A stretch of 64,000 nucleotides of DNA from positions 2,278-66,277 of the forward strand of contig JAGOTD010000005.1 of the NCBI GenBank assembly GCA_018061945.1, given 5' to 3'. The notes below the pieces were generated by a model that worked only from the letters and a program-made list of their open reading frames with translations, ran no database searches and was not told the origin of the DNA. This DNA comes from Candidatus Peribacteraceae bacterium. Its GTDB lineage: Bacteria > Patescibacteriota > Gracilibacteria > Peribacterales > Peribacteraceae. Shown in pieces: positions 8,001-21,659 of this stretch (its first letter is position 1; every line of letters begins with the position of its first letter). The translations under genes and the position numbers were made by a program.

Positions 8001-9236
8001 ATGGCCAAAGAACGTGTTATCGCATCTCTCGATGTCGGAAGTTCCAAAATCCGTACAGTCGTCGCAGTCGTAGATTCTAGTGAAGGTGGTCAGGTACCAA
8101 GTGTCATTGGTGTTGGTCTTTCGCCATCGCTTGGCATGCGCAAGGGGCACATTATCGATATCGAAGAAGCGATTCACAATATTATCTCGGCTCTCGAAGA
8201 TGCTGAGCGTATGGCCGGTGTTCCCATCAACCACGTGTTTGTGGGTATGAGCGGAGCGCACATCGAGGCGTTCGACAGCAGGGGAGTCATCGCTATCTCG
8301 GGTAGCGAAATTACGGTGGAAGACGTTGCGCGCGTGCTCGAGGCTGCTCAGGCAGTTAGCATTCCAAGTAATCGTCGCATTTTGCATATCGAACCAAAGT
8401 CCTACGCTGTCGACGAGCAGAAGGGGATCAAGAATCCGGTTGGTATGACGGGCATCCGTTTGGAAGTCGAAGCCCACATCATCACCGGTCAAATCCAGCA
8501 TGTCAAAAACTTAGAGAAATGTATCGATCAGTCGGGTGTCGATATCGACGCGCTCATTCCAGCGAACATCGCAATTTCCGAGGCAGTGCTCACCAAGCGT
8601 CAGAAAGAATTGGGTGTGGTTATTATCGATATCGGCGCCGGTTCGACCAGCGTTGCCATCTTCGAAGAAGGAACCATCATGCATTCTGTCTGTTTGCCCG
8701 TTGGCGGCGAGAATGTCACCAACGACATTGCAATCGGTCTTCGTACATCTATCGATACAGCCGAGAAAATCAAAATCGAATACGGTTCTGTTCTGCCTGC
8801 CGAAATCCAGGAGCGCGAAATGATCGATCTAGGCACGATTAGCAAAATGGATACGCAGACCGTGAGTCGCCGCTACATGGCCGAAATCATGCAGGCGCGT
8901 TACTACGAACTGTTCTCACTGGTAAAAGACGAGCTCAAGCGCATTGGTCGCGATGGATTGCTCCCTGCTGGTGCACTGCTCACGGGCGCCGCAGTCAAAG
9001 CTCCTGGTGTCCTCGATATCGCGCGCGAAGTACTCGGCTTGCCGGTACAAATGGGTTTCCCAGTCGAGATTGGTGGTGTTATCGAAAAAGTCGATGATCC
9101 AGCGTATGCCACGGCTCTCGGTACACTCCTTTGGGGTGTGCGCGAAGGTCAGCGTAATTCGTTCTCGGTAAACAATATCAATATGAAACGTGCTATCAGC
9201 CAGGTTGGTTCCTGGTTTAAAAATCTCCTTCCTTAA
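8001..9236 (+). CDS. ftsA: Cell division protein FtsA
   Basis: Actin-like ATPase motifs (ASLDVGSSKIR, IIDIGAGSTSVA). It sits immediately upstream of ftsZ. Confidence 0.9.
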   Translation: MAKERVIASLDVGSSKIRTVVAVVDSSEGGQVPSVIGVGLSPSLGMRKGHIIDIEEAIHNIISALEDAERMAGVPINHVFVGMSGAHIEAFDSRGVIAISGSEITVEDVARVLEAAQAVSIPSNRRILHIEPKSYAVDEQKGIKNPVGMTGIRLEVEAHIITGQIQHVKNLEKCIDQSGVDIDALIPANIAISEAVLTKRQKELGVVIIDIGAGSTSVAIFEEGTIMHSVCLPVGGENVTNDIAIGLRTSIDTAEKIKIEYGSVLPAEIQEREMIDLGTISKMDTQTVSRRYMAEIMQARYYELFSLVKDELKRIGRDGLLPAGALLTGAAVKAPGVLDIAREVLGLPVQMGFPVEIGGVIEKVDDPAYATALGTLLWGVREGQRNSFSVNNINMKRAISQVGSWFKNLLP

Positions 9237-10643: not shown

Positions 10644-12341
10644 ATGATTGATGAGATCAAGCAAAGGCTGGTAGGACTATGTCCTACCGATCAGAACGGG
10701 AGAAGTGCATTAAATTTTCCTATAGACTCCGCACTTGAGCAAATAAAAGAAGAGCTTATAGACTTATTCTCTCCTGAGGATGCAGATCAGCTGGTATCTA
10801 GATTTGGCAAGACTCATCTTTTTGATTTATTGCTCCGATTGAAAATTTGTCGAGAAAAATATTTTGATATTTTATCACGTTTAGAAGAGGGAAAAGAAAG
10901 TCTTCGGGTTTATGAGCAGAAGCTTCAGCAAAACTCTCTTCAGGCGAATGATTATGTGCTTCATGAAGTGAACGTCGATCTTGTAAATATAATTAAGAGT
11001 GTAGAACAAGCGGTAAATGTATTGATAAGTACGTATTCAGTTGATTCGATTTCTTCATATCAAGAGAAAAAAAGTACTCTAAACAATATTGATGAAATGT
11101 ATCGATATTTTCTGCAGAGAATATCTCTGATTATGACTGGATTAGATTGGCAATCAATCAGTATACAACCAGGGCTGCACTCGCGAGTGTTCAGTGAGCT
11201 TGATTTTGAGCAGCCTGGACTTGTGGGTTATAAAAGATTTAACTATCCAGCATTGGAAAGCTATGAAAGGTGGTTTTTAACTAACCAAGTTGAATGTAAT
11301 AATCCAAATGATCTGACTGCCATTCTCACGAGTTCAGGAATGGGTGCGCTAAGCGTTGTATTGCAATTTTTAAAAAATAAACTTCGATCAGATGATGCGA
11401 TTTTGTTTTCCGAATCCATGTACTGCGAATGCAGTCAATTGATGGAAATGTTCTTTGGTGACAGTCCAAATATAGCAAAATTCTCTCAAGAAGAGCCTCG
11501 GAAAATAGTAGACATCGTAAAAGAAAAGAACATACGTGCCATACTCTTAGAGCCCATTGCAAATACAGAAACTATGCAAGTTGTTGATATGCCGGGATTC
11601 ATAAAAATCCTGCAGTCAGAGACTTGGCAGGATGACATATTTGTTATTGCTGATACCAGCGTTACAGCTGGAGGCGAGAAACTTTTTGAGACCTATAATT
11701 CACAACAGAATCCTCATGTGCACCTTATAGGTGTTGAAAGCCTTATTAAATATCGTCAATTAGGCAACGACAGAGTGAATGCCGGAGTCATTATTGCCGA
11801 ACATGGTTTTCGTCAAAAGCTTCAGTATATAAGACAGGCGACTGGAACTTTTCTTTCGGATCAAAGCTTGCACCAGCTTCCTCGCTTACCAAAAGAATCG
11901 TTCCTGCAATATTTGCGTATTATTCAACGCAATAGCCTTTTTCTGACCGACAAAATTAACGAAACATTAGCAGGAATAGACTCACCTTTTGAAAAAGCTA
12001 TTCATCCTACAAAGGTGGCACCAGAAGTTTGTCAAAAGATGCAATTTTCTACCGGCCTTATTGCTCTTCAGTGGAAAGAGGGAGCGCAAGGTAATTGTTT
12101 TGAAATTTTAGAAAAAATGGTATCTCAAATTATTACTCAGGCAAAAGTATTGAAATTAGATATTGATAGTGGAACTAGTTTCGGTTTTAGCTCAACACGT
12201 TTTTATATTGCTCCGACTAATCATAGAGGTCACGGTAATTTTTTGCGTATATCGGTTGGAGTTGAGCCAATTCTAGATATTTTAAAGATTGCAGAAATTA
12301 TTTGTAATACAATAAAAGAAGCGCCCTCATTCATTGGATAA
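10644..12341 (+). CDS. Cys/Met-metabolism-type PLP-dependent enzyme with an uncharacterised N-terminal domain of about 200 aa
   Basis: TSSGMGALSV, SLIKYRQLGNDRVNAGVII (PLP-lysine segment, S-x-x-K) and the C-terminal FLRISVGVEPILDIL all match the fold-type I gamma-family pattern. The gene is visibly AT-richer than its neighbours. Confidence 0.75.
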   Translation: MIDEIKQRLVGLCPTDQNGRSALNFPIDSALEQIKEELIDLFSPEDADQLVSRFGKTHLFDLLLRLKICREKYFDILSRLEEGKESLRVYEQKLQQNSLQANDYVLHEVNVDLVNIIKSVEQAVNVLISTYSVDSISSYQEKKSTLNNIDEMYRYFLQRISLIMTGLDWQSISIQPGLHSRVFSELDFEQPGLVGYKRFNYPALESYERWFLTNQVECNNPNDLTAILTSSGMGALSVVLQFLKNKLRSDDAILFSESMYCECSQLMEMFFGDSPNIAKFSQEEPRKIVDIVKEKNIRAILLEPIANTETMQVVDMPGFIKILQSETWQDDIFVIADTSVTAGGEKLFETYNSQQNPHVHLIGVESLIKYRQLGNDRVNAGVIIAEHGFRQKLQYIRQATGTFLSDQSLHQLPRLPKESFLQYLRIIQRNSLFLTDKINETLAGIDSPFEKAIHPTKVAPEVCQKMQFSTGLIALQWKEGAQGNCFEILEKMVSQIITQAKVLKLDIDSGTSFGFSSTRFYIAPTNHRGHGNFLRISVGVEPILDILKIAEIICNTIKEAPSFIG

Positions 12342-12403: not shown

Positions 12404-12691
12404 TTAGTACTCGTGAAATACATATTCATAATGTTCCGCAGTAACGACATATCCTCCATTGCAGTCGTTACACAAGTACGTCGTTGTATTGTATCCGCTC
12501 CCACTAAAGTTTTTCTCTGAAACCTCCCTTGTACCACTGCCTCCGCACGAGTTGCATCTGTGGCGAGATTTAGGAACAAGAATTTTTTCATGATATCCAC
12601 GCTCAATGTCTGTATTGCCGCATTTAGGGCAGAAAGCGGCGTTGGAGCTGACTTGGTGGTTGCAGACATTGCAAGTGACGAGCTTGGGCAT
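12404..12691 (-). CDS. Zinc-ribbon protein with DnaJ-type CxxCxGxG motifs
   Basis: CNVC...CPKCG forms a zinc ribbon. It is followed by CNSCGGSG and CNDCNGGY. Confidence 0.65.
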   Translation of the reverse strand: MPKLVTCNVCNHQVSSNAAFCPKCGNTDIERGYHEKILVPKSRHRCNSCGGSGTREVSEKNFSGSGYNTTTYLCNDCNGGYVVTAEHYEYVFHEY

Positions 12692-13265: not shown

Positions 13266-16200
13266 TTATTTACTAAATGGATCTGCTGGAACAGGCAGAT
13301 CGATTTTTATCACTTCTTCATATTCTTTCTTCAAATCACTGGTTTGTTTTACATCTGCTATTGGTGCCCCTCCCGCAGCTTTAGCTACGCCGTCAAGTAA
13401 GCCTTGACTTACTTCTGATCGAACAATAATTCCTCTTCTTAGTAAGCCTAAGAGAATATGTCTATTTTTTGTATCTACTTCTGCTGCAAATTGATTTGTA
13501 GATGCTGGGTTAGCTAAGATTCTTGTTTTAAACCATACTTTTAGCTTCGCGTGCATTTCTCGTCTGAAATTTTCTGCAGCGGTCGTATCTATTTTTTTTA
13601 AATCATCATACCGATCGAAGACGGCTGCAAAGAAGTTGAGCGCTTTTTGTTGATGTGTGGGTCTACCAGTTGAATCTCTGGTCCCTAATTCTTCAATGAT
13701 ACCTCTACCCGCAAGTAAAACATCCGAGCCCTCAGCACTAAAGAAGTCATCATCGGTTTTGGCTGCACTTGTAGTGCTGTTTGCATCTTTCATCCATGTC
13801 TCTCGATAATTATTGAAAATCTTATCATCTTGGAAAATTGAGATAAACTTTCCATCCTGTTCGTAAGTTTTTCCTGACAAAATAATAGAAATTGCTTCGT
13901 CTATATCCTGGGCATTGCTTATTGCTTTAAAATTCTCGCGTAATTTTTTTTCAACATGAGCTATTGTTTCAAAGAGATAGCAATCATTTTTCTGAAATGC
14001 TGTTTCAGAATCTGTACTACTTGCTTCTTTTCTCCAATTCATAAAACTGTTTCTTTGAGTTTTAAATTGCGTAAGTGACCATGCGGATTCACCGATACCG
14101 ATGTTACCGATGTCGTCGAGCAAACCTTTGTCCAAAATGCTAATTAGATCTTTATTTTTACGCAGTTCGTTGATAAATGTCACCATTCCCCATACATTTG
14201 AATGTGTCAGTTTTCCCTTTTCCTGAATACGCTTGAGAATTCCTTTAATCGCAAAGATGTTTAATTTCTTCAGTTCGTCTTTCATGTCTTTGATCATGAG
14301 TGGAATATCGGGATGTTTGGTCACTTTATCATATCCTCTGCTTTCTTCCTTTTTCTTTCCTCCTTCATTTTCTTCCACGAGCTCCTTAAATGCCTGGGTG
14401 GTAAACACTTTGGCATAGTCGATACCGTACACGTTGTGTGGGTTATAGCGGTCGAGATCGTAGAGCCATGCATGCTTGGCGCCATAATCCAAAATAGCAC
14501 GGACACGGTTCACGTTATTGCGGTTCTGGTCGAGCAGGCTTTGCCCGTAACTATTTGTAAACAATTCTTTATAGGTAAATCCTTCCTGCTCCAGATATGT
14601 TTTGTACTTGTCCGTTTCATCGCTGTCGGCAGAACGAGCCTGTCTGTTGATAATCTGGCGGATCGGCTGGCCGTATGAAAAGGTATCTAAAAACCACGAC
14701 GAATCTTTGGCGATGCGGTTTGTTACAACGTTCTGTTGCGCTTTATACGACTCTACAATTGCTTCCTGGTAAATCTTGAAAATTTTCACAATGTCGTAGT
14801 AACACAGCCATTCTGCACCTCCGTCCTGCCCTAAGAATCCGAATAATTTGGATTTAAAGTCCTTCTTCTTGCCATACTGTTCCAAGTTTGCATCTCTCAG
14901 CCTCTTTGCATCATTGTAGTCCTCAATAGTTTTAAGCGGTCTTTCGAGTGACTTTAGATGTTTTGCAGCATCATCTAAGATTGTCTGTTTAGATTTTTTT
15001 GTTGCTTTACTGTTGTCGAGTGCTTCGCTGGATACATCTGATCCCAGTTGTGCCAAATTTCGATAGTCACTCGCATTAGGAAAGTTCCATTCTGTTGCCA
15101 ATTTCGCCTTTTCGCTAATGGTGAAATTATTCCAGTTTTCTATTTTGGTAGCCACTCCTTGCACCATTCGGAGATCTGCTGCCGCAGCAGTTAAATACTC
15201 ATCGGCAACTTTCATACCTTCGGCATGTATTTTATCCAGATCTGCCCCGGTGTGCGCATTAATTCCTTGAGTCTTGGCATCGTGTGCGGCGTCGTCGGAG
15301 AAGTTCGAGAGCTGCATAGTTGGTAGCGCTTTGCGCAGCGCTTGAACTTTCTGTAAGGATTTCTCAGAATTGGCTTTTACATCATATGCAGTAGCAGTAT
15401 CTTTCTTCTTAGATTCGTTGGTGGTTTCATCTACTTCATTGTCTGCTGCCCCTCCCGGGTTCATAGTACGCACTTTCTTTGCCTGTTCATCTGCCCAAAT
15501 TGCATCAATTTCTTTTCTCGCACCTTCGCGAATATCGTCTGGCTCATCTGCCACGACTCTTTTGCCCCATTCTCTTTTCAATAATTCTTCTGATGGCATA
15601 CGTTCGCCGATGGCATTGCGCACGATTATATCGAATTCTTCAAAGCTATCGTCTGTGCGCTTGGTAATGCGATCAACAATATTCTTGAGGAATGCAGTCT
15701 GTTTGTCTTTGTGCTTTAGTGCATTTTCTACCAACACGGCCAGATTTTTGAGTTCCTGATCTTTGCCATCGGTATAGGGAGCTTTGCGATGAGCGGCAGC
15801 AATAGCCAGAATTTCATGGAGGTAATCGGTATCCGATTCAAAGGCTGGAACACGGTCACCAGTTACGACATTTCTCGTATTCCAAATGCGATCGATGGCC
15901 AGTTTCATGTCGTTCCATTCAGGAAGCTTTGTAAACAGAGTCGTAATCTTGCGCAGGCCCATAATGCCGCCGCTTTCTTTATCGAGTTCAAAATGTGTGA
16001 GTTCGTGCGCGATAATACGTGCACGATCGGTAACATTTCGTGCCTGCGGATTATCAATATTGATATGAATCTCGTTGCCAAAACAAAATGCTGCCGGCTT
16101 GCCTCTGCTCAGTACGATCTGCACTTCCTCTTCGGATGCAAACGGCATGCTGGCGCGCGTGTATTTTTCGAACGTTTTGTTAAAGCTTTCATCAATGGGC

Positions 16201-17192
16201 GTGTCGAGTATCGGTGCATCTCCTTTGGGAGCCTGATATTTTCCCAGTGCCAGAACGTCCTGTTTAAACTGCGCGCGCAAATGATTGATCGTACTGCTGA
16301 TCATCTGCTCCGGATTGTCGGAGTATTCGGCAATATCCGATTCACGCAGTTTTTGTTCGATAGCTGCACTGTTTCGGGCAAAGTACTCATCGATTAAGCT
16401 TTTTGGTTTTTTGCTGACAAATTCGCTAGTGCGCGAGAGAGAAGTATCAATTTTATTGAGATAACGGCTATCTTGATTCTGTGAAAATTCTTCAAAAGAC
16501 TTCTCTTTTTCCTGCAGTACTTGCATCAGGTAATCAGCTTGCTGCTTTGGTGTTTGATTGCGCAGTTTTTCTAAGCGTTTCTTAAGTGAGCGCATCAGTT
16601 TTTCGTAGATGCGCATAGGAGACTTCAGTTTATTTTGAACGCTTTCATCTGTCGTATTGTCAAAGCGCTTATCAAGATTGTCGTATATTGCTCGATACGA
16701 TTGTAGTCGATCTTCAAACGAAGCAACCACTGTGGTTTGCTCATCACCGCTGTCTGATTTCGTTACTTTCTCATACAAATTCTTATAGAAAGATTTTTCC
16801 CATACCAGAGCACTAAGAATATTTTGTGCATTTGTTTCCTCTTCGTGCCATATAAAGCTTTCCGCATATGATTGGAATTTCTCCTGCATGTCGATTCGAA
16901 CGCTATGAAGCGTGCTTTTTATTTTCTCTTCGGCTTCCAGTGCGCCATATGTCTTTTCCTTCTCGCTGAGATTGTCCAGCAGCTGCTTGCGGATATCGGC
17001 AACGATTTCCTGTGGAAGAGGGGAGAGCTCGGGTGCGCTTAGTGGTTTCTTTTTGCCTGCCTCCGGTCCATCAAATTCCGGATCATGTAGCGGATGACCG
17101 GATGTATTTGCTCCCGCGAAAAAGCAGAGGCGCTGCTCCTTGGTTGGAGAGTGCGAGTGAGCAAAGTGCGCGTTGGTGAACCTATGTATCAT
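13266..17192 (-). CDS. Giant hypothetical protein with one HExxH zinc-metallopeptidase-like motif
   Basis: 1308-aa uninterrupted ORF with no obvious signal peptide or TM. AAFCFGNEIHINIDNPQARNVTDRARIIAHELTH (HELTH at nt 15993-16007, aa 396-400) resembles the DUF4157-type core by eye. The rest is helical, K/E/D-rich and unassigned. Confidence 0.8.
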   Translation of the reverse strand: MIHRFTNAHFAHSHSPTKEQRLCFFAGANTSGHPLHDPEFDGPEAGKKKPLSAPELSPLPQEIVADIRKQLLDNLSEKEKTYGALEAEEKIKSTLHSVRIDMQEKFQSYAESFIWHEEETNAQNILSALVWEKSFYKNLYEKVTKSDSGDEQTTVVASFEDRLQSYRAIYDNLDKRFDNTTDESVQNKLKSPMRIYEKLMRSLKKRLEKLRNQTPKQQADYLMQVLQEKEKSFEEFSQNQDSRYLNKIDTSLSRTSEFVSKKPKSLIDEYFARNSAAIEQKLRESDIAEYSDNPEQMISSTINHLRAQFKQDVLALGKYQAPKGDAPILDTPIDESFNKTFEKYTRASMPFASEEEVQIVLSRGKPAAFCFGNEIHINIDNPQARNVTDRARIIAHELTHFELDKESGGIMGLRKITTLFTKLPEWNDMKLAIDRIWNTRNVVTGDRVPAFESDTDYLHEILAIAAAHRKAPYTDGKDQELKNLAVLVENALKHKDKQTAFLKNIVDRITKRTDDSFEEFDIIVRNAIGERMPSEELLKREWGKRVVADEPDDIREGARKEIDAIWADEQAKKVRTMNPGGAADNEVDETTNESKKKDTATAYDVKANSEKSLQKVQALRKALPTMQLSNFSDDAAHDAKTQGINAHTGADLDKIHAEGMKVADEYLTAAAADLRMVQGVATKIENWNNFTISEKAKLATEWNFPNASDYRNLAQLGSDVSSEALDNSKATKKSKQTILDDAAKHLKSLERPLKTIEDYNDAKRLRDANLEQYGKKKDFKSKLFGFLGQDGGAEWLCYYDIVKIFKIYQEAIVESYKAQQNVVTNRIAKDSSWFLDTFSYGQPIRQIINRQARSADSDETDKYKTYLEQEGFTYKELFTNSYGQSLLDQNRNNVNRVRAILDYGAKHAWLYDLDRYNPHNVYGIDYAKVFTTQAFKELVEENEGGKKKEESRGYDKVTKHPDIPLMIKDMKDELKKLNIFAIKGILKRIQEKGKLTHSNVWGMVTFINELRKNKDLISILDKGLLDDIGNIGIGESAWSLTQFKTQRNSFMNWRKEASSTDSETAFQKNDCYLFETIAHVEKKLRENFKAISNAQDIDEAISIILSGKTYEQDGKFISIFQDDKIFNNYRETWMKDANSTTSAAKTDDDFFSAEGSDVLLAGRGIIEELGTRDSTGRPTHQQKALNFFAAVFDRYDDLKKIDTTAAENFRREMHAKLKVWFKTRILANPASTNQFAAEVDTKNRHILLGLLRRGIIVRSEVSQGLLDGVAKAAGGAPIADVKQTSDLKKEYEEVIKIDLPVPADPFSK

Positions 17193-17669
17193 TTATATTT
17201 TACAATAACGAATAATGGCGTCAATCATTTTCTCGCGTTTTTCTGGGTCATGTGGAAGATGCGGATTCAGCGCTTCGTAAATGGCGTGCGCATCAATACT
17301 GTCTGTGAAAATGACAATGTCTGGCTTGAGGCCTTTGCGGGCAACGTGTAACTGGGTGTGTGTGATGCCACGCAGGATCCAGAAGTTTTTGAATGCATCC
17401 CACACTTCGACTTTGCCGTCGTACTCAATACCTGCCTCGAGTATGCGAATTGAATGCAGGGCATGTTTCTCGTTGCGGACGAGAAAATACAATCCAGCGG
17501 CAATCGCGATTACTAGGCTCATGGTCCACGCACCTGTCAGAAGTCCGTAGACAATAAGCGCAACTGCCAGAATGCCGGCAATGGCATACCAGCGCTCCGA
17601 CCGGTCGTGGTCGATCTGCGATGGTGCCTGCCACTCCAGTACTGCCGGAATATTATTTGTTTGGTCCAT
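17193..17669 (-). CDS. Two-TM membrane protein, abutting the giant ORF
   Basis: 158 aa with two adjacent TM helices and then a soluble domain. Its stop abuts the start of the downstream 1308-aa gene (17193/17192). Confidence 0.75.
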   Translation of the reverse strand: MDQTNNIPAVLEWQAPSQIDHDRSERWYAIAGILAVALIVYGLLTGAWTMSLVIAIAAGLYFLVRNEKHALHSIRILEAGIEYDGKVEVWDAFKNFWILRGITHTQLHVARKGLKPDIVIFTDSIDAHAIYEALNPHLPHDPEKREKMIDAIIRYCKI

Positions 17670-17773: not shown

Positions 17774-18526
17774 TTATCCGCGCGCTACCGTTAAGCCAAT
17801 CACTCGCTTGATTCCGGCTTTTTTCAATGCCGCAGCACAGGCTTGCATAGTGGCGCCGGTTGTAAGGAGATCATCGACAAGAATAACAGTTGCCGGAGCG
17901 GGAAAGGACTCAGATGATTCAAGTGACTCAGAGGACTCAAAAGACTCAGAGGATATGTTTGCTTGAGAAGTTAAGAGTTTTTCTGATGAAGATCGAAGTG
18001 ATCTCGCATGTATTTGAAAAGCATTATTCACTGCCTTGAGGCGCTGCTCTCGGTTACGCCACGCTTGGTGTCCTGTTGGGCGGGTGCGCACAATAAGCTG
18101 CTCTACCGGCCAGTTTTTCTCTCGGCCGATATCGGCGGCCAGTAGCTGCGCTTGATTGAATCCGCGCTGAAAACGGCGCGTCCAATGCAGAGGAATTGGA
18201 CACAACACAGGCGTTGATTCACCTGGTAGCATCAGCAAATTTGACGCAGCATTGATCATGAGAAAACTGAGCATATGGCTAAGTGCTGGAATGCGTTTGT
18301 ACTTGAGAGTCCGTATCGCTTTGCGCAGCAGTGGCGATGTCTCGTAATCCGCAGCCGCAATGACGGTCTCAAGATCAGTGCATCCCATTTTTCGCAGTTG
18401 CGATTGGGTAAGGTAGATCGATTCCAGATTGGCGAGACTCGTCCACTCGTCCTCTGTTATCCACTGCCCTTCGCCACCATCCAGTGAGGGGATGGGAAAG
18501 AGGAGGTCGAGGAGCGGTTTGAGCAT
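17774..18526 (-). CDS. comF: ComF-family phosphoribosyltransferase-fold protein
   Basis: N-terminus is MLKPLLDLLFP and the C-terminal PRPP motif is VILVDDLLTTGATM. The start was set at the ATG at 18526; the track start at 18589 would overlap the upstream gene by 50 nt. Confidence 0.85.
   Translation of the reverse strand: MLKPLLDLLFPIPSLDGGEGQWITEDEWTSLANLESIYLTQSQLRKMGCTDLETVIAAADYETSPLLRKAIRTLKYKRIPALSHMLSFLMINAASNLLMLPGESTPVLCPIPLHWTRRFQRGFNQAQLLAADIGREKNWPVEQLIVRTRPTGHQAWRNREQRLKAVNNAFQIHARSLRSSSEKLLTSQANISSESFESSESLESSESFPAPATVILVDDLLTTGATMQACAAALKKAGIKRVIGLTVARG
17906..17953. repeat. Family B word array embedded in-frame in comF
   Basis: ggactcagatgattcaagtgactcagaggactcaaaagactcagagga is read on the minus strand as SSESFESSESLESSES. 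Confidence 0.85.
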
Positions 18527-18539
18527 GCGAAAAAGGAGA

Positions 18540-19649
18540 TCAGCGAGCTGCTTGTGCAGTTGCAATTTTTGTTTTGATAGTCGATACATCTATCACGCGG
18601 TCGTATCTGCGTCCGGCAATGAGCAGTGTCGGAATTTTAATGGTACGGATGCGCTTCTCCACAATAAGTCGCTGATCAGCCAGGCTTGATTGCACGTCCG
18701 GTGAATGGGCGAGGGCTGCAATTCGGCTGACCTCGTCTGCGGTATAGCCGATTTCCTGCAATAAGTGCTGCAACTGTGTCGTTGCATCGGTTTTTGTCAT
18801 GCCCATGACAAAACGCGACTGCAAGTCTGCATCTTCTTCTGCTGCCGGCTGGGCAAAAATCTTTTCAATGAGCTGCCAGTCCGCTGCGACGGATGTATCG
18901 CCTCGTGTCAGCGGTACGCGCTTGGTGGCCTCGATATACGATGCCATTTCGTATGAATGCGGGAACTTGTAGCTACCGCTGTCCGTGGATGGAATCGGAT
19001 AGAGGAGATAGGAGATATTCAGCGCATTCATTGCATCGGCATCCATCATATTTTTGGTGAGTTTTTTACAGAATCTACAGCTGGGATCGATAATCTCCAG
19101 CGCGTACGGTTTTGCCCTGTCTTCTGCGTGGAAGAAGGTAGCTGTCGGGCTCAGATAGTCCTGTGCATTCCAGTTTTTCAGCCGGTCAGGAATGCGCGAG
19201 AGTGTGGTGCCAAGCCGGACAAACGGTCCTGCGGCCCATTCTGTGATACGTCGCTCCTGTACGGCTTGCGCAATGCCCAGCGTCGATTGAGTCACGCCGC
19301 ACGCCTCGCCCGACAGCGAGCACGACTCGGCACTCTGCGGATTGCAGGTGTCATACACCCACAAATTGAGTCCGGCATTGGCAACGTAGACAAGGCTCCA
19401 GATACTGAGTGCCACGAAAAGAAACGAAAGCCAGTCGATCCACTTGTTAAGGAACCTGGCCAGACGCGGATGGGTGAAGATCAGCTTTCCGACCAGTTTG
19501 CCTTTCATTTCCTCGCCGAAGCTGATGTCGCAGGGGCGCAGTGTGATTCTGCGCAGGACACAGTGCCATGCTTTGCCGGCCAGCGGACGGAAGGAGGCGG
19601 AGAAAATCGCAATAATGCCGAAGACGATGAACGTGGCAATGCAGAACAT
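18540..19649 (-). CDS. Membrane-anchored DsbA/thioredoxin-fold thiol:disulfide oxidoreductase
   Basis: There are two N-terminal TM helices and a Cys-rich loop. The redox motif is CRFC within DPSCRFCKKL. A cis-Pro segment (KIPTLLI) is present. Confidence 0.7.
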   Translation of the reverse strand: MFCIATFIVFGIIAIFSASFRPLAGKAWHCVLRRITLRPCDISFGEEMKGKLVGKLIFTHPRLARFLNKWIDWLSFLFVALSIWSLVYVANAGLNLWVYDTCNPQSAESCSLSGEACGVTQSTLGIAQAVQERRITEWAAGPFVRLGTTLSRIPDRLKNWNAQDYLSPTATFFHAEDRAKPYALEIIDPSCRFCKKLTKNMMDADAMNALNISYLLYPIPSTDSGSYKFPHSYEMASYIEATKRVPLTRGDTSVAADWQLIEKIFAQPAAEEDADLQSRFVMGMTKTDATTQLQHLLQEIGYTADEVSRIAALAHSPDVQSSLADQRLIVEKRIRTIKIPTLLIAGRRYDRVIDVSTIKTKIATAQAAR

Positions 19650-20930: not shown

Positions 20931-21659
20931 TCACTTATTATTTAGCTTCATAAACGTCAAAATTGTATTAAGTAATAGATAATAGGTCCAGGTTAAGTAT
21001 GGTTCATCAATATCTTTTTGTTGATCATTATGATGACGAATTCCATAATTATTTAGAATATCAAAAATAGTCCTTTCGTCAGTTTTTAGACTATTATCAG
21101 TTTTTAAATCTTTACGAATTGACTCAAGTACTTGCCCTAGTGCCTGAATCGAGCTTTTCTTTTCCTCTACTGTCGAATTTCTCTTAAAGAATAGATCTTT
21201 GGCATGCGCAATTTTTTCTTTAGCTGATAGCACATCGCTTTTCGGAATTTTAGCATCAGCTAAATCTATTAATTCAATTTCAGGAATAAATTCAATAAGC
21301 CCATTTCTCATCCTATATCCCCATTCTTTTAGTGCATCCTCTAGGAGGAATTGCAGCAACATTGAGCGGATAAGCTTCTCATCTCTAGAATCTTTATATT
21401 CTTCAAGAAATTGATAAGCGCATTCGAGCATATCAAATAGATCATTTTCATTTGATACAATTTCAATATTTCTAGGTGTAAGGTCTAAGTCTTTTGTTTT
21501 TAGAAGGAAAAAGTGTTCCAAGGTTTCTATGTCGTATTTGTATTGTTTAAATTCGCCGCCTTCAAAAAGTAAATCTGTAAATGGCTTACTGCATAGTTTT
21601 CTGAGTATATAGAAGCTTCCTTTTTTTATTTCGCCTTTTTTTCTTTCAGAGAACAGCAT
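20931..21659 (-). CDS. Orphan hypothetical protein in a strongly AT-rich islet
   Basis: 242-aa ORF, K/E/L/I-rich, with no recognised motif. It lies directly next to the 3' end of tRNA-Val(GAC). Confidence 0.7.
   Translation of the reverse strand: MLFSERKKGEIKKGSFYILRKLCSKPFTDLLFEGGEFKQYKYDIETLEHFFLLKTKDLDLTPRNIEIVSNENDLFDMLECAYQFLEEYKDSRDEKLIRSMLLQFLLEDALKEWGYRMRNGLIEFIPEIELIDLADAKIPKSDVLSAKEKIAHAKDLFFKRNSTVEEKKSSIQALGQVLESIRKDLKTDNSLKTDERTIFDILNNYGIRHHNDQQKDIDEPYLTWTYYLLLNTILTFMKLNNK

Follow-up and report, generated by a model that had tools for sequence, protein, structure and literature searches.

We analyzed a window of 64,000 nucleotides (nt) from a metagenome-assembled genome (MAG) of a Candidatus Peribacteraceae bacterium (contig JAGOTD010000005.1), with a focus on two adjacent genes whose products are both labeled "hypothetical protein" at NCBI. 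The upstream gene, which we call SMALL (MBP9773925.1; 17193–17669), encodes a membrane protein of 158 amino acids (aa), and the downstream gene, which we call GIANT (MBP9773924.1; 13266–17192), encodes a protein of 1308 aa. Both genes, and all of their features described below, lie on the reverse (−) strand. GIANT is the largest gene of the window, as noted in an initial annotation made from the sequence, the runner-up open reading frame (ORF) being 750 aa long. The same annotation presented GIANT as an orphan, a view overturned by an exhaustive HMMER search run with residues 109–1308: this search retrieved 164 representative clusters of relatives at E ≤ 1e-3, 140 of which passed E ≤ 1e-10 and 60 of which passed E ≤ 1e-30. 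A word-indexed search with the full GIANT sequence and with the profile of alignment A3 had returned only the query and one relative at 67% identity, probably swamped by words rich in lysine and glutamate (K/E), and the same type of search with the C-terminal domain of GIANT (C-domain) recovered two JGI fragments but missed the query itself.

The distribution of the family was then defined by a scan of the GTDB species representatives, which yielded 21 loci: 20 are titled Peribacteria or Peregrinibacteria and one is titled only "bacterium". No relatives of GIANT were found in a phage collection or in IMG/VR. The gene order comF–SMALL–GIANT–dut–ftsZ–ftsA–5'3'-exonuclease is kept in the GTDB loci wherever the contigs reach far enough, and the relative at 67% identity presents the same neighborhood. 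Across loci, FtsZ is 68–96% identical and FtsA 77–99% identical, whereas GIANT is only 22–67% identical. Conserved synteny, combined with a divergence far exceeding that of FtsZ and FtsA, indicates that GIANT is a vertically inherited and fast-evolving core gene rather than part of a mobile island. GIANT is indeed AT-richer than dut and comF, as initially annotated (GC-content of 42.7%, vs. 53.7% and 50.4%), but it is not a compositional outlier among the 41 genes of the window: its GC-content has a z-score of −1.4 relative to their mean (48.8 ± 4.4%), and the z-score of its GC-content at third codon positions (GC3) is −1.3. This z-score of −1.4 and the class-wide synteny rule out that GIANT represents a horizontally acquired AT-rich island. 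The best explanation of these observations is that SMALL and GIANT constitute a Peregrinibacteria-specific, vertically inherited module of two proteins.

The linkage of the two genes, which the initial annotation had observed at a single locus, holds across genomes. A homologue of SMALL was found directly upstream of GIANT in all 18 loci with upstream DNA (17 from GTDB and one ENA contig); four further loci that end at the 5' end of GIANT were left out of this count. Reciprocally, we searched from SMALL and fetched 23 metagenome loci, 14 of which combine a SMALL homologue at least 40% identical with an ORF of 150 aa or more downstream of it. In all 14, the abutting ORF starts with the N-terminal motif of the GIANT family (N-motif). 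SMALL ends exactly where GIANT starts (17193/17192), as annotated, with a stop/start junction of 0 nt spacing (...AAA ATA TAA/ATG ATA...; 17187–17198), and the genes abut in the same manner in the relative at 67% identity (4394/4395). Exact TAR/ATG abutment was observed in 15 of the 18 loci, and spacers of 1 and 2 nt were found in loci L018 and L019, respectively. In most loci, SMALL and GIANT share one reading frame, but the spacers of L018 and L019 shift the frame, so the conserved trait is close coupling and not read-through fusion. This arrangement suggests that the two genes are likely translationally coupled.

Several further observations concern the junction itself. Its nucleotides (...TGT AAA CTA TAR ATG CTG...) are kept across loci, and the normally rare leucine codon CTA is used in most of them. 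In the window, a sigma-70-like site (TTGACG-16 nt-TAAAAT; 10/12; 17197–17224) is located in the 3' end of SMALL and ends 5 nt ahead of the ATG of GIANT. Promoter and terminator scans showed no enrichment over shuffled sequences. In addition to the constraint acting on the proteins, these features might stem from an internal promoter followed by a leaderless start, or from a signal for reinitiation.

SMALL presents a single hydrophobic block, with 19-residue Kyte–Doolittle windows above 1.6 over residues 26–65, which fits the two transmembrane (TM) helices proposed in the initial annotation. This predicted hydrophobic hairpin (residues 27–64; 17478–17591) is followed by a soluble domain (residues 65–158; 17196–17477). 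The 18 homologues have in common the sequence LEW.AP....H.RS.RWY, the two-helix hydrophobic block, the soluble domain of ~95 aa and the C-terminal tail ER.LDAIIRFCKL; the positions W27, Y28, Y41, G80, W90, W97, E146, R154 and K157 are invariant in their alignment (A6). The hairpin is preceded by R23 and R26 and followed by R65, K68 and R75, and these flanks suggest, by the positive-inside rule, an N-in/C-in topology. The consensus of the soluble domain matched DUF5673 (PF18923), a family of bacterial PH-like proteins with two TM helices, with E = 0.01 and 16.3 bits, below the gathering threshold (GA) of 26.7; two of the 18 members matched it at E of about 1e-3. Three SMALL homologues weakly matched a phage holin family (E of about 0.05), and a search of PDB sequences with SMALL gave no match. 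Finally, three metagenome contigs (L042:5971–7983, L043 and L044) encode a SMALL homologue at 27% identity and, 6 nt further downstream, an unrelated protein of 505 aa without the N-motif, with a hydrophobic segment near residues 335–385 and no Pfam match. Members of the SMALL family are thus paired with at least one further type of protein.

Domain architecture of GIANT

GIANT was initially annotated as a protein without signal peptide, TM helix or repeats, and our analyses support this description. No hydrophobic segment was detected, the maximum 19-residue Kyte–Doolittle mean being 0.92, and a search for tandem repeats revealed none apart from one 18-nt chance match. Along the query, family coverage is concentrated on the first ~50 residues, on residues 350–530 (~25–28 representatives), on the linker and mid region, and on residues 780–1250 (~145 representatives). 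We identified 65 short forms of ~700–1000 aa, which consist of the N-motif, an acidic linker, a helical region of ~200 aa and the C-domain. The helical region of the short forms is homologous to residues 602–779 of GIANT (hhalign Prob 96%; E = 3e-9). The short forms represent the family core, and GIANT therefore corresponds to this core with an inserted K/E-rich stretch (residues 61–334) and an inserted zincin domain (residues 335–545). In this core, a linker that is acidic and disordered connects the 26-aa N-motif to a helical mid domain, which is followed by an all-alpha C-domain of 470 aa.

The N-motif (residues 1–26, here MIHRFTNAHFAHSHSPTKEQRLCFFA; 17115–17192) was defined from a logo of 114 representatives and occupies a fixed position. 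It follows the pattern M-[LI]-x5-[WA]-[RH]-[FL]-A-x3-S-P-x-[RK]-E-x-R-[LE]-L-x-F-A, with conservation reaching 87% for A, 88% for P, 97% for R and 78% for F across these representatives. The motif is followed by a low-complexity stretch rich in P, E, G and T. We considered that it might be a generic amphipathic membrane helix, which was ruled out by its low hydrophobic moments. The coverage profile further delimits a helical low-complexity region rich in K and E (residues 61–334; 16191–17012) that is common only to the query and its relative at 67% identity; it gave merely weak matches of the coiled-coil type, such as ATP synthase subunit b. An acidic disordered linker (residues 568–601; 15390–15491) was delimited by AlphaFold2 (AF2), with a predicted local distance difference test (pLDDT) score below 50, and residues 546–601 have an isoelectric point of 4.4. 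The helical mid domain (residues 602–775; 14868–15389), which belongs to the family core, was modeled by AF2 with pLDDT values mostly of 84–97 and one short dip to ~61–72.

The C-domain (residues 780–1250; 13443–14855) is the hallmark of the family and is aligned in about 145 of 150 representatives. AF2 modeled it from an alignment of 96 sequences as an all-alpha domain, for which 27 helices were listed, with a pLDDT of 94.1 and a predicted template modeling score (pTM) of 0.90. Foldseek comparison of this model with the PDB returned nothing significant, the best match being a designed protein (E = 0.059) and the natural matches having TM-scores of about 0.2 or lower, and comparison with BFVD was likewise not significant (best E = 0.32). 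No match to the C-domain was found in Pfam, NCBIfam, PHROG or PADLOC, and searches of PDB sequences likewise yielded nothing of relevance. Its most conserved motif is TDDDFF (residues 1146–1151; 13740–13757), in which D1149 and D1147 are conserved in 100% and 97% of the 96 sequences, respectively. In the same alignment, further polar positions are conserved at 90% or more: N895, E973, N978, D1026, K1044, R1047, Y1129 and R1130. The cluster formed by D1147, D1149, E973, D1026, K1044, R1047, R1130, N895 and N978 is more suggestive of a site for ligand binding or catalysis than of a surface with a purely structural role. We also considered a terpene-synthase-like C-domain, as the consensus matched PF19086 at E = 0.012 and Peribacteria invest in isoprenoids (PMC4736985), but this candidate was rejected: the top 50 Foldseek matches of the model with pLDDT of 94 did not include any terpene synthase, and all matches listed had TM-scores of about 0.2 or lower.

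Two divergent loci encode giants of 1433 and 1456 aa (L033:5068–9369 and L039:6451–10821) that possess the N-motif together with a zincin of a second subfamily (HERGH ... ELL..Y..W; subfamily B, below). Their C-terminal region is very divergent (hhalign Prob 68%; E = 5e-5). L039 keeps the order comF–SMALL–GIANT with no match to dut or ftsZ within 1.6 kb downstream of the giant, and the contig of L033 stops just past the gene.

The HExxH domain of the long forms

The initial annotation had pointed to HELTH at nt 15993–16007 as the only motif of its kind in GIANT, and it is indeed the sole H[ED]xxH of the protein (residues 396–400). This putative zinc-binding and catalytic motif belongs to a gluzincin-like domain with a DUF4157-like core (residues 335–545; 15558–16190), a long-form-specific insertion that was delimited by alignment A3, AF2 and hhalign. 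The conservation of the His and Glu residues across homologues could be verified: H396, E397, H400 and E460 are invariant in the 33 aligned long forms. Because these members are only 25–32% identical, such invariance argues that the HExxH is more than a chance occurrence. E460 (15813–15815), which lies 60 residues downstream of the HExxH within the sequence HEILAIA of a downstream helix, is a candidate third zinc ligand. Upstream of HELTH, the edge-strand hairpin motif PAAFCFGNEIHIN (residues 366–378; 16059–16097) contains P366, A368 and F369, each conserved in at least 90% of the 33 long forms. In the AF2 model of residues 330–530 (pLDDT > 90), a beta-hairpin (AAFCF/EIHI) precedes the HExxH helix, and E460 is located on a helix further downstream.

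One member of the family provides a natural control for these residues. P0029 (997 aa) matches the hidden Markov model (HMM) of the domain at E = 6e-27 (residues ~135–215) and keeps the rest of the domain, but LELAE replaces the HExxH and ARTMLAVY replaces HEALAIY. Both His and the equivalent of E460 are lost, and E397 is kept. The joint loss of H, H and E, typical of a pseudo-enzyme, suggests that these residues form a single site. The long forms of subfamily B (HE[RK]GH) point in the same direction: their domain aligned with that of subfamily A over 112 columns, including the HExxH and the Glu (Prob 76%; E = 2e-5), whereas the reversed control reached a Prob of 0.2%. A member of subfamily B, P0070, matched Peptidase_M78 (PF06114) with 22.9 bits, slightly above the GA of 22, and subfamily B also matched DUF6782 below threshold; the scan of GIANT with PF06114 gave no match. 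When the domain profile was searched against PDB sequences, the best matches were aureolysin (M4) and an M48 peptidase, which aligned on the strand and the HExxH and were not significant. Judging from these sequence features, the domain inserted in the long forms is probably an active gluzincin-type metalloprotease. The domain was found in about one third of the family and about two thirds are without it; the possibility that the short forms harbor a degenerate zincin was ruled out (hhalign Prob 1.7%). Since it is absent from most members, the zincin cannot define the function of the family.

The relationship of this domain to DUF4157, which the initial annotation had suggested by eye, could be supported for the core and not for membership in the Pfam family. 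DUF4157 (PF13699) was the only peptidase-like Pfam match of GIANT (residues 355–401; profile positions 27–72 of 79; 18.2 bits; E = 0.0029), and it was also the top match of the family consensus (16.9–18.4 bits). These scores were always below the GA of 22 bits, and E ≤ 0.01 was reached in only 3 of the 33 members. We further compared the domain with a genuine DUF4157 profile. This profile combined ten proteins encoded on plasmids, which were gathered with a bait sequence and several of which are named "DUF4157 domain-containing protein" in RefSeq. The comparison with hhalign gave a Prob of 93.5% and E = 2.3e-7, vs. a Prob of 0.2% and E of about 0.3 for the reversed and unrelated controls, and the alignment was limited to the 39 columns between the AF..G..I.F strand and the HExxH helix, both included; when the HExxH columns were deleted, E was 0.003. 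In this alignment, residues 366–378 of GIANT correspond to the A-F-T-x-G-x-x-I-x-F segment of genuine DUF4157. The N-terminal half of DUF4157 (ME..FG.DFS.VRVH) and its HVxQQ signature are both absent, GIANT reading HELTHFELD, and the hhalign alignment stops at the core. These results indicate that the HExxH domain, as judged from sequence comparison, is probably a gluzincin with a DUF4157-like core and that it is not a member of PF13699.

DUF4157 has been defined by its association with extracellular contractile injection systems (eCIS), and DUF4157 proteins typically consist of an N-terminal DUF4157, a long linker and a C-terminal toxin (PMC8213781). Neither the 64-kb window nor the available flanks of related loci were found to contain eCIS or phage-tail genes: a PHROG scan of 39 ORFs of the window revealed no gene for a sheath, tube or baseplate, and the flanks of the related GTDB loci, as far as their contigs reach, contain conserved housekeeping genes. 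GIANT is probably not an eCIS-type DUF4157 effector.

Neighboring genes in the window

Only 2 nt separate the stops of the convergent genes dut and GIANT (13263/13266), and in L001 there is even an overlap of 4 nt (8261–8264), so that a terminator could not fit between the genes. The distant loci L018–L023 differ in that dut is inverted and lies just downstream of GIANT in the same direction. On the other side of the pair, the comF-like ORF (17774–18589, −) is 271 aa long as listed and overlaps by 50 nt the upstream ORF of 369 aa (18540–19649, −); the called comF orthologue is 231 aa long, which suggests that the true start of comF is probably further downstream. The 369-aa ORF had no Pfam match and only a faint DsbC-like NCBIfam match.

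Other genes of the window have no counterpart in related loci. A gene encoding a 565-aa protein similar to enzymes dependent on pyridoxal phosphate (PLP) is located at 10644–12341 (+; Cys_Met_Meta_PP; E = 7e-11; GC-content of 37% and GC3 of 30%) and adjoins a zinc-ribbon ORF of 95 aa (12404–12691, −). Both lie between ftsZ and dut in this window only, with no matching ORF in the related loci examined, and they look like a recent insertion or horizontal acquisition. The strongest compositional outlier of the 41 window genes is an ORF of 242 aa (20931–21659, −; GC-content of 31.8% and GC3 of 26%), for which no counterpart was found in the syntenic loci compared. A scan with Rfam detected tRNAs only.

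Possible roles of the pair

Tentatively, we favor a model in which GIANT is a cytoplasmic protein tethered to SMALL through its N-motif and equipped with a gluzincin module; docking, topology and protease activity are all inferred. SMALL would be a hairpin membrane protein with both termini inside and its soluble domain facing the cytoplasm. GIANT would be produced in step with SMALL by termination–reinitiation and would stay in the cytoplasm, because it has no signal peptide or TM helix. It would dock on SMALL through its N-terminal peptide, and the flexible acidic linker would then hold the mid domain and the C-domain, the working end of the protein, at the membrane. The C-domain would carry the conserved activity, and the gluzincin of the long forms may process GIANT itself or a membrane-proximal substrate.

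Several points weigh against this model. GIANT evolves much faster than its neighbors, and secreted effectors, too, typically have disordered N-terminal regions, making an extracellular role for GIANT possible; the similarity of its core to DUF4157 also recalls the domain–linker–toxin architecture of eCIS toxins (PMC8213781). The suggested topology of SMALL comes only from the positive-inside rule, and its contact with the N-motif is hypothetical. In addition, Foldseek comparison of the model of residues 330–800 with the PDB returned no significant zincin (best E = 1.6; FtsH at rank 6 with E = 2.7), although this is a weak test since the query is multi-domain with a pTM of 0.5.

Alternatively, GIANT could be secreted or injected as an effector, as the initial annotation had hypothesized, a scenario that we consider unlikely. 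GIANT would be exported without a classical signal, the N-motif being the export signal and SMALL a holin-like exporter or chaperone, and the zincin would mature or release a C-terminal effector domain whose target is the cell of a host or partner. Peribacteria have been regarded as symbionts, with variation located in large exported proteins (PMC4736985). The fast evolution of GIANT relative to its neighbors, the conserved N-terminal peptide followed by a disordered linker across the family, and a zincin core resembling that of proteins in which DUF4157 and a C-terminal toxin are separated by a long linker would all fit with such a role. Several observations speak against the initial hypothesis: GIANT has no signal peptide, TM helix or known secretion-associated domain, contractile-tail and eCIS genes are lacking in the window and flanks, and the gene occupies a fixed core-genome position beside housekeeping genes. 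Most family members are without the zincin domain, and the C-domain is conserved family-wide rather than swapped as in polymorphic toxins. The weak holin matches of three SMALL homologues would support an exporter, but the structured soluble domain of ~95 aa is unlike holins.

A broader version of these ideas, in which we have little confidence, is that the pair represents a hitherto unrecognized, Peregrinibacteria-wide delivery or docking system. SMALL would read the 26-aa peptide (A-x4-P-x-[RK]-E-x-R-L-L-x-F-A) and would then serve either to export the signal-less GIANT or to retain it at the membrane. The C-domain would have a novel enzyme fold with the envelope or the host cell as its target, and the DUF4157-like zincin would be a built-in maturation protease. 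If true, this would represent a new non-classical route of secretion or targeting in bacteria of the candidate phyla radiation (CPR).

It is also improbable that the pair is a division or envelope scaffold, with GIANT acting with FtsA and FtsZ as a membrane-anchored helical protein, like EzrA or LiaI–LiaH, and the zincin as a regulatory add-on. The succession of tether peptide, disordered linker and folded domain in GIANT resembles the logic of the C-terminal linker and C-terminal peptide (CTL/CTP) of FtsZ. GIANT is all-alpha, its closest natural Foldseek matches, which are not significant, are rod-like (Exo70, cullin and cohesin STAG), and the pair adjoins dut–ftsZ–ftsA in almost every GTDB locus whose contig reaches that far. 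Because the whole neighborhood is syntenic, however, this adjacency tells little about function; moreover, ftsAZ is transcribed convergently to GIANT, the pair persists in L039 despite the lack of a dut or ftsZ match within 1.6 kb downstream, and the conserved polar cluster points to binding or catalysis rather than to a plain scaffold. Finally, tight coupling and a DUF4157-like core would be compatible with GIANT being a toxin and SMALL its immunity protein, but this is highly improbable given that SMALL lies upstream and is embedded in the membrane, while an immunity gene is usually located downstream of its toxin, that the C-terminal domain is not polymorphic and the gene downstream of GIANT is dut, that each locus fetched contains the pair once, at a fixed position of the core genome without mobile elements or secretion genes around it, and that no PADLOC match was found.

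Whichever role applies, CPR genomes are tiny, yet every Peribacteria locus retrieved keeps this 4.4-kb pair at one fixed chromosomal position, which argues for an important lineage-specific function. The supposed orphan is now a family with a docking or signal peptide, a membrane partner, an optional putative gluzincin, a pseudo-enzyme control and a modeled domain of 470 aa. Should the pair turn out to be a targeting or export device, or the C-domain a novel enzyme, this would help to explain how CPR cells living as episymbionts build or use their envelope. The presence of a DUF4157-like core outside any eCIS context also bears on the role of DUF4157. The family has no Pfam or NCBIfam model and is not mentioned in the Peribacteria genome paper (PMC4736985) or in the DUF4157 literature searched; the family itself, the fold of the C-domain, the N-motif and the obligate partner appear to be undescribed. 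The gluzincin, the small membrane anchor and the translational coupling are recognizable parts of known kinds.

With respect to these known kinds, GIANT and DUF4157 proteins alike present the edge strand A-F-x-x-G-x-x-I-x-F followed, after ~20–27 residues, by the HExxH helix, and as in DUF4157 toxins the zincin-like module is located well upstream of a large C-terminal domain, with a long linker between them. Unlike DUF4157, GIANT possesses an extra helical subdomain with the invariant E460. Its C-terminal domain is common to the family and not swappable like the toxins of DUF4157 proteins, and no eCIS locus was found in the window or flanks. The combination of HExxH and a Glu on a later helix is shared with the minimal gluzincins of clan MA (M48 HtpX/Ste24-like, M78 ImmA/IrrE, DUF6782 and M4), and the spacing of 60 residues between them is close to that of M48. 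In contrast to these minimal gluzincins, the domain of GIANT reaches no family threshold and is an insertion in a protein of 1300 aa with a dedicated membrane partner.

The pair as a whole can be compared with two types of systems. TcdE assists, as a holin, the release of the large signal-less toxins TcdA and TcdB, and GIANT is similarly a large protein without signal peptide encoded near a small multi-TM protein. Unlike TcdE, SMALL has a folded soluble domain of ~95 aa and marginal holin matches, with no lysin or peptidoglycan hydrolase partner seen, and unlike TcdA and TcdB, GIANT is a core gene that is not in a pathogenicity locus. Pairs of a small membrane anchor and a peripheral helical protein are known (LiaI–LiaH and PspB/C–PspA), and by analogy SMALL and GIANT may be a pair of this type: they are adjacent genes of an operon that encode a small protein with two TM helices and a large soluble helical protein, which would likewise be placed at the membrane. 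The only data behind the analogy with LiaI–LiaH are one weak LiaI–LiaF-like TM match of SMALL. Unlike the helical proteins of these pairs, GIANT does not have the ESCRT-III/PspA fold and is five times larger, and it has an N-terminal peptide conserved in the family as well as a protease domain that is optional.

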